A program made the position numbers and the translations under genes. The notes under the pieces are model-generated. The model saw only the letters and a list, made by a program, of their open reading frames with translations. It searched no databases and was not told the origin of the DNA. Of a stretch of 64,000 nucleotides of DNA, positions 25,080-36,100 are shown one piece after another. Numbering within the stretch: position 1 is the stretch's first letter; each line of letters begins with the position of its first letter. This DNA is from Leucoraja erinacea (Eukaryota), in contig NC_073410.1 of NCBI RefSeq assembly GCF_028641065.1, positions 7,254,001 through 7,318,000 on the forward strand. The letters run 5' to 3'.

Positions 25080-26232
25080 CAAAACCCTTCTTCAGACTTC
25101 AGCTTTGTGTGTCCATCTTCGGTTTAATCCAGCATCTGCAGTTCCTTCCGAGAGGCTCCAAGTTTGTTAATAAATTTCTTGTCGCTCGACAGCCAATAAA
25201 TAAAAACTGAAGCATAAATGCAACTGTTCCAGTCCGTAAATTATTCAGAACCCGAGCGCTGCTAACTCCACAAGGCAACTAAAAATTATTCGCAAATCAA
25301 CAGGGAACTTGCGCAACCAAGTAGAATAAAAAACGCATTCAATCCGAAACAATCAATGAAGTGAACAGAATAGTGGCAGAAACAAGTTGGAGAGAAACCT
25401 GATACAAGCTGATCAGAGACCTCGTTTGTTATTTAAAATTCACTTGGGAGAGGAAACCCTATCAGATTTGGAGTCCCACACCCTCTGCTGTGTACAAAGA
25501 CATGGCCACATTCAAGGGTAATCATGTCAAACATGCCTTGTGCATCAAATATGATCAGACAGCAGCAGCTTTATTTGCAAGGTCCTTTCCTGCTCCTTTC
25601 TCAAACCTGACATTTAAAGACTGATGCCTATCAGGCAAATCCCTAGCTTTCATTTCACAATGCCCTTCCCTATCCTCCAGCCTTCCATCACCAGAAACCC
25701 AGACCAGCCCTGATTTAGACACCATTCACCCCCAAGGCTGCAGCATTAGACAGCTTTTGATTTTTCTCACCGAGATACAAGAAACTGGAGATGCTGGTTT
25801 ACAATAAACTCACAAAAGTGCTGGAGTAACTCAGCGAGTCAAGCAATATCTCTGGAGAGCATTAATAGGGGACATTGAGTTGGGACAATTCTCTTTTCCT
25901 CTGGCTTCACAATTGACACCTCTTCTATTCTTGTCTCACACCTTTGGTCTTTTTAAACTCCCTGGGTTTTGTCAACATAGGGAACGTGCCAATCACCCCC
26001 CCCCCCCCCCCCCCCCCCCCCTGTATCCACCTAAAAGGATACAAACGTGCTGGGAAGGAAAACAATGAGGACGGCACAGTGGTGCAGCGGTTAAGAGTTG
26101 CTGCCTTACAGCGCCAGAGACCCAGGTTCGATCCTGACTACAGTTGCTGTCTGTAGAGAGTTTGTGTATATATATCAGGCTATTAAACTCAACTCAAACA
26201 AAAACTCTGATCATTATATATATTTATATTTA

Positions 26233-27443
26233 CAGGTGCACAACCTTTTATCCGAAAGCCTTGGGACCAGACACTTGTCGGATTTCGGACATTTTCGGAT
26301 TTCAGAATGGAAGATTTTTAACGTAGATTAGGTAGGTAGCGCGGGCGGCTTGAAAAGTCTGGAGCAGCTGCCTCCTCCCCGGAGACTCATTGCATAAATG
26401 TTAGTCAGTTAGTTTGGCAGGATTTTATGTGGTGGTGGTGGTGGTGGTGTAGGGGTGAAGGGGGAAACTTTAATTCTTAGTCCCCTACCTACCTGGTCGG
26501 CGACTCCCAACCTCGCGGAGCTGGGGGCTCCGTCCGGCCGCGGGCGGTGCCGGTTGTAGCTCCGACCCCGGCAACTCTACCCCTGGCTGCGAGGCTCCAA
26601 ATCTAGCGCGGCCCGCGGCCGGACGCCCCAGCTCCGAGAATGTCGGGAGTCGGCGACTTCGCAGCGCTGGGATACCAGCGGGGAGCGGGCAATGCCTTAC
26701 CGGGTCGCCGTGCGGCAAGCTCCGGAGCGCTGTGGCCGCCGACACACAACATTCGCGGAGCGTCGCTGGATTTGGAGCCGCGGAGCTGGGGGCTCCGTCC
26801 GGCCGCGGGCGGCGCCGGTTGTAGCTCCGACCCCGGCAACTCTAGCCCTGGCTGCGCGGCCCCAAATCCAGCGACGCCCCGCGAACGTGTGGGTCGGCGG
26901 CCACAGCGCTCCGGAGCTTGCCGCACGGCGACCCGGTAAGGCATTGCCCGCTCCCCGCTGGTATCCCAGCGCTGCGATGCCGCCGACTCCCGACATTCGC
27001 GGAGCTGGGGCGTCCGGCCGCGGGCCGCGCTGGATTTGGAGCGCCTCGCAGCCAGGGGTAGCGTTGCCGGGGTCGGAGCTACAACCGGCGACGCCCGCGG
27101 CCCCACTGGCCACAGCGCTGCGGAGTTTACTGCACGGCGACCCGGTAAGGCATTGACCGCTCCCCGCCTCTCCGACCAGGTAGGGGACTGAGAATTAAAG
27201 TTTACCCCTTCACCCCCCCCTTCACATAAAAGCCCTCCAAACTAACTGACTAACATTTAAGCAATGATTTACAGATGTTTAAGCGTCTCCCGGTCTCCGG
27301 GCAGGAGGCAGCCGCTACAGTAGTACAGACCTGGGTTGACCGTGGGTCGTTTTGGGTCAGGTTTGGCGCCAAACGCGAGCTTTGGTGCGCAGACGACATC
27401 TGGAAAAAATGGCCGGTTTTCGGAGCTTTTCGGTTTCTGGAAC
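26233..27443. mobile_element. pogo/Tigger-like (Tigger4/MER46-like ends) non-autonomous element with internal GC-rich palindrome; right end falls in the gap
   Basis: TA-CAGGTGCACAACCTTTTATCCGAAAGCCTTGGGACCAGA...TCGGATTTCGGA...TTTTCGGATTTC resembles Tigger4/MER46 termini. TTTTCGGA/TTTTCGGT subterminal motifs recur just before the Ns. Confidence 0.7.
26363..27316. repeat. ~950-bp GC-rich inverted repeat
   Basis: Outer arms 26363-26500 and 27170-27316 are imperfect inverses. Inner arms ~26550-26780 and ~26855-27085 are near-perfect inverses. The spacer repeats ~26514-26590 directly. Confidence 0.9.
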
Positions 27444-27634: not shown

Positions 27635-27965
27635 CACACTATAATAGTATATATATATATATATACTATAATAGTATATATATTAATGATCGGAGTTTTG
27701 TTTGAGTTTAGTTTAATAGCCTGATGGCTGTGGGGAAGCAGCTATTCCTGAACCTGGATGTTTCAGGTTTCAGGCTCCTGTACCTTCGACCTGAGGGCAG
27801 CGGGGAGATGAGTGAGTGGCCAGGATGGTGTGGGTCATTGATGATGCTGGCAGCCGTTGAGGCAGCGACTGTGGTAGATACCCTCGATGGTAGGGAGGTC
27901 AGAGCCGATGATGGACTGGGCAGTGTTTACAACTTTTTGCAGTCTTTTCCGCTCCTGGGCACTCA
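27635..27965 (-). mobile_element. Rex1/Babar 3' fragment
   Basis: Minus strand ...SIINDPHHPGHSLISPLPSGRRYRSLKPETSRFRNSCFP, followed by a TA-rich tail. Confidence 0.8.
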
Positions 27966-28508: not shown

Positions 28509-30585
28509 TTAGCCAGTTAGACGCAGCAGACACAAACAGTCACCAGAATCTAATGTTGATCAGAATTTGCCCATTCTCGCTAATCCCACCCTTTTATTCT
28601 CCCCACATTCCCATCAACATCACTCTCCCCCTCGCCCATCTCCATGTTACTAATCATCTGCACACTAGCATTAAATTGCAGAGCCAAATTAATTTAATAA
28701 CCCACATTTTTTTCGGATGGGGGAAGGGGTCTGGTGCACCCAGAGAAGACCTCCCCACTGCATACTGCCTTCTTTTGTATCAAAAGTATTGGTCAGTCTT
28801 TCTATCTTCCTCTCCTGGAGTCAAACACTGATAGAGCCACAGAGTCAGGCAACAGACCTTTCACCCCACGCAACCAAATGCCCCATCAAATGTAGTCCAA
28901 TTTGCCTGGAGTTGACCCACATACCTCAAACGTTCCTATTCATCTGCTTGTCCAAGTGTCTATTAAATGCTCCTGTAGTCCCTGCCTCAACCACTTTCAC
29001 TGTATAACTAGTTCCACAAACATACCACCCTCGGAATGAAGAAGTTGCCCCTCAGGTTCCTATTAAGACTTTTCCCCTCTCTCCTTAAATCTATGCCCTC
29101 TGGTTCTTGATTCCCAACCATGGGTAAAAGGCTCCGAGCATTGCCCCGTGGATGCATTGCTACCTGAAGGCGCTATTTCATTTCTATCAAGGCAGCAGTG
29201 TTAAGGAATTCTTATGAAAATACTTTATCACCTTGTCAGCTCTCCCGAGGTTGCTGTTGCATTGCTCTGACAAACTGGCTCGCACCTTGGGCTGTGTAGC
29301 TTAAATTAATCATTCTGGGAAGGAGGATTGTCTGTAGACCCTGTGGCTCAGTGGGCTGTACCCTCGGCCCAGGATTAGTAGGTTGTGGGTCCAAGTCTTG
29401 AGCTCCATTGAAATTCAATATGGTGGTAGACCCATAAATAATGCATTAACTCCAATTACAGGTAGATCTGCTCAAACGCAATAATTGCATTTCGAAGAAA
29501 CCGTATTTTATAGAAATTGATGTTATATAAACAATTGCTCCAAGAAGGAAAAGTGTGTTGGGGGGGCCAGAGAGTTTCAGACTCACAATAACAAAGCTTT
29601 TTTCTCCCCCACAGGATTTTCAAAACTAATGGCATTTTTAATGGTTGCAAGTTTAAATTTGTTGCTGCAAGCTAAAAATATTAAAAGCAGTATGTTTCAT
29701 TGATTAATGGAGTATCTCGGCACATGCCAATAGACGCAATTACATGACAATTACAACGGCCTGCTGCAACAGAATGGACAGGCCATGTTCTTAATAGGGT
29801 GATTACTGTGGGGAGGCTACATGGAAACATTTCTTTTCCAAGACAGCTTTTTTTTACTGCTTGCCAATTTCCAAAGTAACTTTTAAGTGGGTCTCTCAGT
29901 CCTGATCTAAATCGTCCTGTAAACTAATTTGGTTTGTGTAATGCAAATAGTGTTTCCCAATTCATGAACCATGTTGTATCTTATTCACATTGAGGATTCA
30001 CGCACTATAGCAGAACTGTCTCTAGTAGGTTTATCGCAGGAGATGTCTGTGGACAAATTGGGTGCCAAATTTCACAAATGATAATGCCAACTATGTCTCA
30101 GGAAGGAATTCCTTAGCTTTGAAGTGTGTTATGCCTAAAGCATTTCCTATTCACACACCAGTCCAATTGTATTTTAAGCAGTTTCTGCCTCAAATACCTC
30201 CTCTGGTAGCTCATTCCATACACCCACCACCCTGTGTGAAAATGATGCCCCTCAGGATCCTATTAAATCTTTCCCTCGCACCTAGCACCTTGGTCTCTGG
30301 TTCTTGATTCCCCTACTGGGTTAAAGACTGTGTGTACCTTTCTCTATTCTCCTCACGGTGTTATGCTGCAGGAATATTGAAATTATTGTATGTTTATTCG
30401 TTATAATTATTTGAACAGGCTCTATTTGGTCACAAAACTTCAAGACATATGGAAAAATAACAGTTTGACTGGGGCAGGCCCAGCAGTTATATGACCAATC
30501 CTCCGGGAATATCTTGGTTGAGACAAGTGACTGAAGTGCCAAGACTTCAGATACTGGCATTGCCCAGAAGGCACAGTGCCAAGGA

Positions 30586-30745
30586 AGACACAAAATGCTG
30601 GAGTAACTCAGCGGGTCAGGGAGCATCTCTGGAGCAATGGAATAGGTGACATCTCTCAACCCGAAACATCACCTACTCCTTTGCTCCAGAGATGCTGCCT
30701 GACCCGCTGAGTTGCTCCAGCATTTTGTGTCTATCTTGGGTGTAA
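30586..30745. mobile_element. Fold-back PLE terminal-repeat pair
   Basis: GACACAAAATGCTGGAGTAACTCAGCGGGTCAGG...CCTGACCCGCTGAGTTGCTCCAGCATTTTGTGTC inverted arms. Confidence 0.8.
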
Positions 30746-30836
30746 ACCTGTGCCTGCACATAGTACCAAGAAAGCTTGGGAGTGCTTCGCACCAACAGAT
30801 GAGCTAAACATCACATAGGAAATAAGCCAACGTTAC

Positions 30837-31001
30837 CGAGCAGTCGTCAAGATCCTTATCCTCTCCGCAATCCTGCAGGAACGCGGCTCAGTATGCAGAC
30901 TGCCGTTCACCAGATAATCCCTTGCTATCTCATTACCACAGCACATAGCAAACACTAGGAAGATAAAGCACGTTGCACTTACCTGAAAAACAAAGAACAA
31001 A
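30837..31001 (-). other. Candidate recursive splice site (3'SS immediately followed by 5'SS) with a 146-nt RS-exon-like segment
   Basis: Minus strand TTTGTTCTTTGTTTTTCAG|GTAAGTG (junction 30983/30982) and a downstream donor-like TCG|GTAACG at 30837/30836, in unique, repeat-free sequence. Confidence 0.5.
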
Positions 31002-31335
31002 TTGGTTATTCACTCAGATACAGTTATTCCCAGAGCAATTCAATATAAAGCACCAGCCTCCATACAAGAACATTTCAAACATTCATTCATACACCACCTG
31101 TGGGGAGCCGATGTGCATTTTCATTTGCAAAACCTGGGGTATTTGACAGCAGGCGGTATAGCGTCAATGTATTTTTTGGGTTCAGTCATAGGATGCGGAG
31201 GTCATCAGCAAGGCTAACATTTCATCAGTCTGAAGAAGGGTTTCGGCCTATTTCCTTCGCTCCATAGATGCTGCTGCATCTGCTGAGTTTCTCCAGCATT
31301 TTTGTGTACCTGGCATTTCATTGTCCATCACAAGC

Positions 31336-31620
31336 AGGCACAGTAGCGCAGCAGTAAAGTTGCTGCCTTACAGCACCAGAGACCCGGGTTTGATCCTGAC
31401 CACGGGTGCCGTCTGTACGGTATTTGTATGTTCTCCCCCCGACCGCTTGGATTTACCCCTGGGTGCCCTGGTTTCCACCCACATTCTAAAGACGTACATG
31501 TTTGTAGGTTACTTGCCTTCGGTAGAGATTGTCCCTAGTGTGTGTGTAGGATAGTGTTAGTGTACGGGAATCACTGGTCGGCATGAACTCGTGAGCCTAA
31601 GGGCCTGTTTCTCAAAACTA
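31336..31620 (+). mobile_element. HE1-like SINE
   Basis: Consensus match. Confidence 0.85.
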
Positions 31621-32454
31621 CACTAATTGCCTAACAAATAGCTTGTTTGGCCATTTTAGAATCAACCACATTGGTTGGTATGGAGTCACATATAATCCAA
31701 GGGATGAATATTGGCCAAGATGAGGATAACTTGGTTGGATGAATATCTTTACATGGATAGGACAGGTTTGGAGGGATATGGACAAAGCACAGGCAGGTGA
31801 GACTAGTGTGGCTGGGACATGTTGGCCGGTGTGGGCAAGTTGGGCTGAAGGGCCAAAGTTTCCGCACAGTATCACTCTATAACTTTGCTTCTCATTAGAT
31901 TAGACAGATGAGATCGTAAACTTCCATACCATTGTGTGAAATGGGACAGGACAAGCTGGTGTACTGACCCAGATACATCTGTAACCTTGAAGAAGGGAGT
32001 TAAAGTCTGCATTTGTTATGCTGTCATTATCCACACTCTCTTTCCTCCCCATTTGAGGAAATCCCAAATCCCATGAAAACTAGACGCAATTACTTCCAAG
32101 TATTTCCCTTCCTACATAAATTGGAAGATGGCACATTGGAGGCAAACGTTTCTCCCTTCATTCCCTTTGATAAAAGGTCTCCCCTATAGTGTGTTGTGAT
32201 AATTGTGCTAGACTATACATAAAAGTGAAGTTCACCGTACCTCGGTACATGTGACAAACAGAGTCCCATACCATCAACAATCACACTAGTTACCGAAAAC
32301 TTGGACCTCTCCAAGTGCAGGGAAGCCGCCAATACACCCCTGGCCAAGTTGACTTGATATTGCTCCTTGCTGCTGTAAAGACTGATGACTGGGAAGGAGG
32401 GAGTTGTTTTACTGTCTCTGAAATAGATGAAAGCTAAACTCTGCTCCCATTCCA

Positions 32455-33146
32455 ATTAGTCTTAGATTAGGTTAGTTTATTGCCATATGCACCAGAGTGC
32501 AATGAAATTCCTAGTCCGCATGAAGCGCCTAGTAAATAATAAATGCAATATGTACGATAAATGCAATGAACAATGCAAATTAGCAGAAAGGTGCGAAGAT
32601 TGCAGGGCAATCTGAAATATTAAGAAAATTAAAGTGCAATAATGGTGCAATAAAATGCAGGAAGAGCGAGCCTTATTTGGTAGCACCTCAGGAAAAGAAG
32701 TTAGCAAGCGATGATCGCTCAACAGATGGGGGAAGAAGCTGTTCTTTACGTCTGGAGGTCTGTTTTTCAAACTCCTGTATCTATTCCTAGACGGTAGAGA
32801 CAGCACACACCCCACTCACCATCAATGGCAGTGCAGTGGAGTCTGTGAAAAGCACCAAGTTCCTGGGAGTGCACATCACAGATGATCAGACATGGTCCAC
32901 CAATACCATCTCCCTAGTCAAGAAAGCACAAGCAACGCCTCCACTTCCTTCGACGGATGAGGAGAGCCAACCTCCCCCCTTACTACATTCTGGCACACTG
33001 TGAATATTTTAAATAACGTATATTGTCTATCTTATTGGTAGATTGTCGGTCTGTGTTATAAATATTACTTGTACATTTGGAGTATGGGGAAACGCAATTT
33101 CAATCCAATTTATTTGAATTGACAATAAAGTTTACTTTGAACTTGA
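32455..33146. mobile_element. Two divergent Rex1/Babar fragments (minus ~32455-32800; plus ~32800-33146)
   Basis: Minus LPSRNRYRSLK...NSFFP with tail. Plus HTPLTINGSAVESVKSTKFLGVHITDDQTWS joined to a GACAATAAA tail. Confidence 0.75.
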
Positions 33147-36100
33147 AAAGAAGAGGCAATGTCCTTGCTGATACCTCCGACCTTCCTGATGGTGAAGATG
33201 GACTGGATGGAAGGAAGTAACTTTTCGATCCTAGGAAAATGATTCTGACAGTCCATCCTAGCTAGACCAGACCTCATAATTGTATACACTTTTACCAGAT
33301 CTCCCCGCTACCTCTGGGGTACAGAGAAAACAATCCAACTTCTCCACGTAGCAAATACCCCCTAATCCAGGCATCAACCTCAATACCAAGGATGAGAGCA
33401 GTGATGGGAGAAAGGGTTCAATAGCTTCCTCCTATACTGCAGAATTCTCCATAACAACATTGCCTTGAAGATTGTTCCAATCGAATTATAAAAGCACTTC
33501 AGTTTCGGTTGACATGCTCTTCAGGTGGCTGAAACACAGGCCCGAGATGATTTTTACGTTAAGTGCCAAATGGCCATTTTGCATCATTTAAGAACAAGTA
33601 ACGACTGGAGGTCTGTACACAAACCACAGAGGCCATGAATCACAGCTCAAGTCATCACTGGCTCCAATTGATCAGGCTGTTGAATATTTACATCAGTGAT
33701 TTGTGTCAACAGCTGGTATGGGCCTAGTTTAGGTAATTACATCCATTATAGTCCAGCTCGTCACTCCGCTCAGCACAAGGGGAAATATCATTTGAGCGTT
33801 GGCAAAGCCCAGGTGGATTTAGACACTGCTGCTCAATAATACACAAGCTTCACATTCTCACTTCTTGCATACAGAGCTGGGGACATATGGCCAAGAAGAT
33901 GGGCACAAAGGTGTCCACACCCCATACGCCCACTTTGCAAGGCTTTCAGTGGGCTAGTACACCTCCAATAAACTACCAACACTCAATTGACCCCAGGGTC
34001 ACCAGGAACTGCAGGTGCTAGTTTACAAAAAAAAAGTGCTGGAGTAACTCAACAGATCAGACAGCATTTCTGGAGAACGTGGGCAGGTGATGTCCTCAGA
34101 AGAAAGTTCCATTTTATTTTGTTTGCTCAAGACAGGAACAATACGAGTCTGTTACTCAAAGGCTATTTCAGCGAGGTCTTGTATTGGATGGGCAAAGAGG
34201 TTCACTGCATTGAATCTTAAAGAAGGGTCCAGACTTGAAATGTTACCTCTCCACGCTCTCCAGAGATGCTGCCTAACTCACTGAATTATTCCAGCACTTG
34301 GTGTATTTTTTCACTCTATTGTATTGATGGTATACAAGGGGGGGGGGGGTCACACTCAAGGGACAGGCAATGGTTTAATATAAAGAGCTCCCCTGAGAAA
34401 TAAGCAAATTCCTTCTACATGAGGTGTGCTTAGTTTCCTATTCCCCCACTTTGAGAAAGGGCCCCAAAGAAGGACACAAAATGCTGGAGCAACTCAGCGG
34501 GTCAGGCAGCATCTCTGGAGGAAAGGTGATGTTTCGGGTCGAGATCCTTCTTCAGACTGAGAGCTTAAATTGTTCACGACATGTATTTTAACTTTAATTG
34601 CTATTTATTTTGTAACGAAAACTGAATGGACACTGGTTGAGAAACGTTTTTTTGTTTCCTCTGAGTATGCGAATACTCAGGAAATGACAATAAAGATTTA
34701 CAATTACAATTACAATTACAATTAGGGAGAGGGAAACTAGAGGTATGAAAAGGTTCTGCACAAAATGAAAGTCGGCACTGACGACCAAGGCAAGGTGGAG
34801 CACATTCCCTGTGAGAATTGCCCCACAGAACATGTATTCTTCTCCAAGAAGCTCGACATTATCTGGGCATCTTACAAAAAGCACGCTGCATTTTCTCCTC
34901 GTCCTCAACCAATCTGTGCTCAATGGGACAACTCAATAACAGGCAGCCTTCAAACAACTGACATCCTCTTGAAAATCTGCCTGTATTGAGATTGCGTTCC
35001 GTACCTCAACTAATGGCAAAGCATTAAAACAAAAGGACTGCTCAAAACTGAAAAGAAGCATCAACATATCTGGTTTTCAGACTGAAATATGAAGCAGGAA
35101 CTCATTCCGCACATCGGAGGGGTCACAGGCAGAGGTCACTGTGGTGACAGATGTCTCTGCCCAGTACGTGCAGGGGCTTCTCCATAACTGCTGGCTTGTG
35201 GATTGCCCGTCCATTCCTTCCATGGATGCTATCAGGCCTGTTGCATTTCTCCAGCAATGTATTTTGCTCAAGATTCCCAGCCTCTACACAGTCTCTTGTC
35301 TATGCTTTAAGGCTCCACCTTGAAATCTCCCCAGAGAATGTAGGGAGGAAAGGTTTACACCAAAGATAGATACAAAATGCTGGAGTAACTCAGCAGGGCT
35401 GGCAGCGTCTGTGGAGAGAATGACTGGGTGACGTCTCAGGTCTGAACAAGGGTCTCGACCCGAAACGTCACCCATTCCTCTCCATGCCGACTTTGACGAA
35501 TTTCTCCTCTTTTCAACAATGGGGCTGAAGAAAGGTCCCGGCCAAAGATGTTGTCTACCCATTCCCTCCACAGACAACCTACTGATTTCCTCCAGAACTG
35601 TGTTTTATCCAATTATATGTTTACCCAATCGGATATGAATCACCTCTTACACTTGTATGGGATGTTTTGCACTAATGTTTTTTTTTTTTTAAATAATCTT
35701 TTTTTCTTCTTATTGTCTTGCAGAATTAAAATTGGTGTTTTTGTATGTTGATTCAGTCTGTTTGCCCGTTGTGTTGTTCCAATAGCCAGACCAACCTCTC
35801 CCTATAGTTCAGCTCCTCAAGTCCTGGCAACATCCTGGTTTGCTGGCTCTTTGCTGGTAGCCAAAGATCACCCACGTTGATCGGGTATAGATTAAGACAA
35901 CAAACTATCTTCCTTCCTTCTTGATAATACAGTTCTGATAACAGAGCTGCATTTTTTTTTTTACAAACTAAATTTCATAATTCAGAGCTACTAAATTCAA
36001 ATTCACCAAGAAGCTTCCATTCACATAGCACCTTCCCCCTCCTCTGGGCATCACACAGGGCAAAGTGATATACTCACTCTTTTTAAAGTGGGATAGATAT

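Follow-up and report, generated by a model that had tools for sequence, protein, structure and literature searches.

A candidate recursive splice site in the first intron of unc5b in Leucoraja erinacea

The closest described systems are the recursive splice sites of mouse, where a set of twenty saw-tooth sites includes members in Cadm1, Cadm2, Opcml, Ntm, Lsamp, Pde4d, Ank3, Robo2, Hs6st3, and Ncam1 (PMC8797253). As set out in that study's text and supplement, the sites are highly conserved and lie in introns longer than 51 kb, within genes that exceed 294 kb, with three of them in Pde4d. The first intron is involved in 75 per cent, and the RS exon measures 42–348 nt. Fifteen of the twenty have AGGTAAGT, with a pyrimidine share of 0.75–1.0 among those fifteen. 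The rebuilt donor CAGGTAAGT has a MaxEnt score of 10.86, as in Cadm1, Opcml, and Hs6st3, and downstream intermediates accompany strong downstream donors (PMC8797253). For vertebrate RS exons, the available accounts describe a model in which the rebuilt donor and the downstream donor compete (PMC5126111; PMC8797253).

Human collections are also available. In one of them, which draws on 70 billion reads, junction reads were present at 60 per cent of the putative sites (PMC6110456). A set of 100 human lariat sites is described as modestly conserved among primates and not at all across vertebrates (bioRxiv 10.1101/2022.12.22.521701), and a further human list contains 3,022 recursive sites (bioRxiv 10.64898/2026.09.10.750672). 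Human UNC5B intron 1 (66,756 nt) has four putative AGGT sites of modest strength (5.4–8.3), and Tables S1–S3 contain no junction-supported or saw-tooth site for this gene, while UNC5D has one site among 342 candidates, with five reads, three of them unique (PMC6110456). Unc5 is absent from the eight supplement files of the mouse study (PMC8797253), and the main texts of the two bioRxiv preprints contain no mention of UNC5. A search of article listings for recursive splicing of UNC5 genes, and of sharks, yielded no paper on either.

We analysed 64,000 nt of Leucoraja erinacea DNA, C34:7254001–7318000 (the window; positions without a contig name are counted from its first letter). A preliminary description had reported a candidate recursive splice site with an RS exon on its minus strand, and the motif and layout it described are confirmed. 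On that strand TTTGTTCTTTGTTTTTCAG runs up to 30983, GTAAGTG starts at 30982, and 146 nt further on a weak donor, TCG/GTAACG (a slash marks the cut), is cut at 30837/30836. The elements of the site, all on the minus strand, are as follows.

31005–31010, minus strand: branch-point-like AATAAC, picked by eye, with the predicted branch A (31006) 24 nt upstream of the cut
30983–31004, minus strand: CAG acceptor and pyrimidine tract (16/20 pyrimidines), read from the sequence
30977–30982, minus strand: GTAAGT abutting the AG, either a recursive donor (RS model) or an ordinary donor
30837–30982, minus strand: putative RS exon, 146 nt, non-coding, delimited from the sequence
30831–30839, minus strand: weak donor TCG/GTAACG, matching 5/9 consensus places

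AATAAC resembles the branch-point consensus. No second AG lies within 30 nt of the acceptor at 30983. The downstream end is less distinctive. The donor at +146 exists as described, though it is one of two equally weak options, since a donor at 30936 would give an RS exon of 46 nt and is an equally possible end. Because the +146 donor matches only 5/9 consensus places, has this rival at +46, and is equalled at 31 per cent of 5000 random intron positions (G/GTRA 40–250 nt downstream), it is uninformative.

The segment had also been called unique, and this was borne out by a single genome match at E ≤ 0.001 (in a search that skips common words) and by zero self-matches over 30760–31216 within 464 kb. 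Contig depth is about 40 at the site against millions in the flanking repeats, and short repeats lie on both sides of the segment. Its CpGs are retained to a modest degree: the count (8 per 191 nt) is reached by 7.8 per cent of 3039 single-copy windows and the observed/expected ratio (0.87) by 4.4 per cent, which puts the segment in the top 4–8 per cent. An Rfam scan of the window returned no families.

Searches with the I-set and C2-set families located neither the host gene nor the hosts of other motif matches. The host was found through open reading frames in 400 kb of neighbouring DNA, which contain a netrin receptor gene on the minus strand.

C34:7333884–7333812, minus strand: unc5b exon 1, 73 nt, encoding the signal peptide, within single-copy DNA rich in CpG
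C34:7333811 down to about 7198890, minus strand: unc5b intron 1, 134,921 nt by exon mapping, with the whole window (1–64000) inside it
from C34:7198889, minus strand: unc5b exon 2, from protein and domain matches

Exon 2 has UNC5B as its best PDB match (E = 1.5e-29), matches the Pfam family Unc5_NetrinR_N, and is 89–92 per cent identical to UNC5B of shark, ray, and chimaera. Exon 1, which ends in CAG in phase 1, matches the Mobula UNC5B N-terminus at 65 per cent (E = 2.6e-7 in a within-region search); comparisons with the UNC5B N-termini of two other species gave no detectable match. From the start codon to the last coding exon the gene spans 195,115 nt, and the site lies 48,829 nt from the 5′ end of intron 1 and 86,092 nt from its 3′ end (36 per cent along). 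The 16/20 tract is comparable in strength to the real acceptors of unc5b, which have 13–19/20 in 14 exons. Mapping the window thus gave what had been expected of it, a long intron of a minus-strand neural gene of a cartilaginous fish, with the motif in sense orientation. For the host gene, the earlier statement that the window contains no coding exon is correct: UNC5B had zero tblastn hits there.

We considered the GC-rich stretch 26260–27440 as an unc5b promoter and rejected it: the stretch consists of a repeated element with internal inversion, and the window stops 16 kb short of exon 1. The GC- and CpG-rich repeat proper (26359–27320) has nested inverted arms of 155 nt that are 97 per cent complementary, sits between a 30-nt inverted pair (26174–26203 and 27696–27725), and is probably a foldback-type transposon. 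Downstream of unc5b, at C34:7.089–7.098 Mb on the minus strand, are open reading frames resembling an equilibrative nucleoside transporter. These are probably SLC29A3, and in human the two genes are likewise adjacent on chromosome 10.

Within 464 kb, on both strands, this is the only instance of YAG/GTAAG with at least 15/20 pyrimidines. Under independence, the chance expectation per strand of a 135-kb intron is about 0.010 for YAG/GTAAGT, 0.054 for the GTAAG form, and 0.15 for GTRAG; 150 order-5 Markov simulations gave 0.013, 0.04, and 0.15. Genome-wide, the same rates amount to roughly 330 chance sites. A pattern fitted to the site had six matches across the genome (the site included), against eight for the pattern read backward and five with the non-donor GTATGA, and a 12-pyrimidine pattern had eleven against twelve in the control. 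The motif class therefore shows no genome-wide excess, although these counts are compatible with a few real sites in each set. For the loosest pattern (194 matches) we set aside the backward control (509), because its control word is probably common in repeats. Further strong matches to a tract with CAG/GTAAGT lie at C32:363407, C32:3744570, C3:22711935, C3:68784961, C2:76592630, and C30:6219679. Four of these six follow an open frame of 57–112 aa and could mark the ends of ordinary exons; the remaining two, C32:3744570 and C3:68784961, lack such a frame and could be recursive candidates.

A PDE4 gene provided a comparison within the same genome. Two tract-TAG/GTAAGT motifs, at C1:52051950 and C1:52297067 on the minus strand, are in sense orientation to this gene, lie 260 and 505 kb upstream of its UCR exons (C1:51.755–51.792 Mb), and have AG-free zones of 59 and 36 nt. 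Among the first 100 listed of the 194 looser-pattern matches, two motifs upstream of PDE4 compare with 0.027 expected (P ≈ 3.5e-4). A PDB search with the gene returned only PDE4B; judged by its residues, it is probably PDE4D. The motifs are likely counterparts of the mammalian PDE4D recursive sites and, judged by sequence, are better candidates than the unc5b site. This control suggests that real recursive sites exist in this genome.

To assess conservation, contigs of four relatives (92–98 per cent alike) were compared over 29150–33950. In the piece of about 490 nt that holds the site, substitutions numbered 22/509, 15/489, 29/486, and 30/365, 96 in total, where the 26 flanking pieces (547/10465) predict 88.5. 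Two of the 32 pieces listed (20/127 and 19/134 differences) were dropped as likely copies of other repeats; there were 684,285 further pieces. One relative was more divergent at the site piece than in its own flanks (p = 0.032). Had a 150-nt core evolved at 30 per cent of the neutral rate, about 70 substitutions would be expected; constraint confined to some 40 nt would escape a count over 490 nt.

Closer to the motif, the contig-position columns place a net deletion of 17 nt (relative X7) and one of 3 nt (X15) inside 30953–30997, the 45 nt that contain the tract end, AG/GTAAGT, and the segment's initial 30 nt. That column behaves as record coordinates in the two pieces where it can be checked, and the placement of the deletions is arithmetic on it. 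CAG/GTAAGT would be spared by 8/29 placements of the 17-nt gap and by 32/43 of the 3-nt gap; both deletions may lie within the T run or the body of the exon. The other two relatives have indels in 31000–31145. Of 478 difference rows, none of the 40 listed is a substitution within 30953–30997, the nearest being at 30998–30999, where all four relatives have CT on the minus strand against TG here, and thus a tract of 17/20 instead of 16/20. The TG of this genome alone is, by the comparison with these relatives, a small weakening of the tract on its own lineage. Against one relative, the 146-nt segment body has at least six differences among the rows listed. Conservation had been proposed as a check on the site. 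With flank-level divergence in four close relatives and deletions within the 45 nt in two of them, the outcome is unfavourable at the available resolution, and the comparison leans against conservation above that of the neighbouring intron.

Several readings treat the motif as part of an exon. Frame 0 of 30837–30982 is open for 48 aa and the other two frames have stops, as had been described, but the open frame is irrelevant to translation from exon 1, whose phase 1 end leads into a frame with a stop. Joined to exon 1, the segment gives a stop at codon 41; this is a weak test, as most random segments would give one. An ordinary coding exon that happens to begin with GT, an alternative raised at the outset, could draw on the open frame and is effectively refuted: that frame fits the phase of neither exon 1 nor exon 2, 146 is not divisible by three, neither blastp among 120 UNC5 proteins (E ≤ 1) nor Pfam gave a match to the 48 aa, and UNC5B in ray, shark, and chimaera passes from the signal peptide straight into exon 2. 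GTAAGT might instead serve as an ordinary donor: 30983 would then be the last base of a cryptic or non-coding exon entered at a weak upstream acceptor. CAG/GTAAGT is a perfect donor by itself, AGs at 31134 or 31098 would yield exons of 151 or 115 nt, and some of the other genome-wide matches, with upstream frames of 83, 112, and 61 aa, resemble ordinary exon ends. These acceptors, however, have short tracts, and the branch-like motif and AG-free zone favour use of 30983 as an acceptor; we consider such an exon quite improbable. All three frames are stopped within 7–10 codons upstream, so it would not be a coding or signal-peptide first exon; these stops also led us to reject an alternative signal-peptide exon with its 3′ end at 30983. 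Very little weight falls on a regulated poison exon, in which the 146- or 46-nt segment would be included in some cells and reduce UNC5B by way of nonsense-mediated decay. The codon-41 stop would suit this role. Regulated poison exons are usually strongly conserved, however, and the body of the segment is not. The rebuilt donor (9/9) also stands far above the downstream donors (5/9 and 6/9), and the mouse study describes downstream intermediates where the downstream donor is strong (PMC8797253).

The account that we favour, with slightly better than even confidence, is that the 30983 site is an incidental, unselected acceptor–donor motif in unc5b intron 1 that the spliceosome could use as a recursive site, probably in no more than a small share of transcripts, if at all. 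Joining of exon 1 to 30982 would rebuild CAG/GTAAGT, because exon 1 ends in CAG. The rebuilt donor should prevail over the weak +46 and +146 donors, so that cutting again at that junction would excise the other 86 kb and yield a normal mRNA, while rare inclusion of the segment would lead to nonsense-mediated decay. Since such use would leave no mark on the mRNA, the site would be free of cost, might originate by chance, and would not have to be conserved. The incidental account is likely because divergence around the site matches that of the flanking DNA in four relatives, with deletions among them, and it agrees with the chance expectation and the lack of excess. It is also consistent with the human and mouse tables searched, which have no used UNC5B site, and with the human sources, in which low-level use is common; the modest conservation of lariat sites and the share of putative sites with some junction reads make low-level use of an unselected site ordinary. 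Against it are the rarity of the motif per intron (about 0.01), its position as the sole strong one in 464 kb, in sense orientation within the longest intron and behind an exon ending in CAG, the occurrence of recursive-type motifs at PDE4, the core free of substitutions among the rows listed, and deletions that may spare the site. The main rival is a genuine recursive site, in regular use and with an RS exon: after exon definition between the acceptor and a weak downstream donor, exon 1 would be joined to 30982 and re-spliced from the rebuilt donor, and intron 1 would leave as pieces of 49 and 86 kb. Motif, tract, intron, rebuilt donor, and exon length match the mouse set as described (PMC8797253), the tract is as strong as the gene's real acceptors and purer in the relatives, and the PDE4 control points the same way. 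Regular use is nevertheless unlikely, given that the comparison with close relatives shows no conservation peak, that all four relatives have indels in or beside the site, that the gene measures about 195 kb against more than 294 kb, that the human and mouse tables searched hold no used UNC5B site, and that the tract is at the low end of the mouse range (PMC8797253). Our weighting is a judgement, starting from a roughly even prior, raised by the CAG exon end and lowered by the indels, the flank-level divergence, and the missing mammalian counterpart. What stands of the recursive-site reading in the preliminary description is the host context and a rebuilt donor of the strongest kind; conservation among relatives is unfavourable to it.

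If the site is used, its mechanism would be the one already known, and a netrin receptor would join the short list of recursively spliced neural genes, as a lineage-restricted example with which to ask if recursive sites evolve in response to growing introns. It is doubtful, though conceivable, that cartilaginous fishes gained a working unc5b site as intron 1 reached twice its human length (135 versus 67 kb). If they did, recursive sites would be born and lost with intron size, and that of unc5b would be young and turning over among relatives.

Compared with known systems, the unc5b site is a candidate recursive site and is not to be filed as a member of the class, because five sequence features fit, gene length fails, conservation leans negative, and use in RNA is putative. 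Unlike the mouse hosts, all over 294 kb, unc5b spans about 195 kb, which is a difference from a trait of that set and not from a strict rule; also unlike the mouse set, the site shows no conservation peak among the four close relatives, and its tract is at the low end of the range. The human UNC5D site lies in a different intron of 87,889 nt and has a weak acceptor (6.28); any kinship to the unc5b site is putative. Low-use human sites resemble the unc5b site in being intronic AGGTs with a good acceptor, but those sites have read support and this one is a candidate from sequence. As in vertebrate RS exons, inclusion of the segment would give a premature stop. The likeness to the mouse saw-tooth sites extends to CAG/GTAAGT, the tract (0.80), a first intron over 51 kb, and a neural gene, and, as in that set, the rebuilt CAG/GTAAGT would exceed the donors downstream, with 9/9 consensus places against 5/9 and 6/9.
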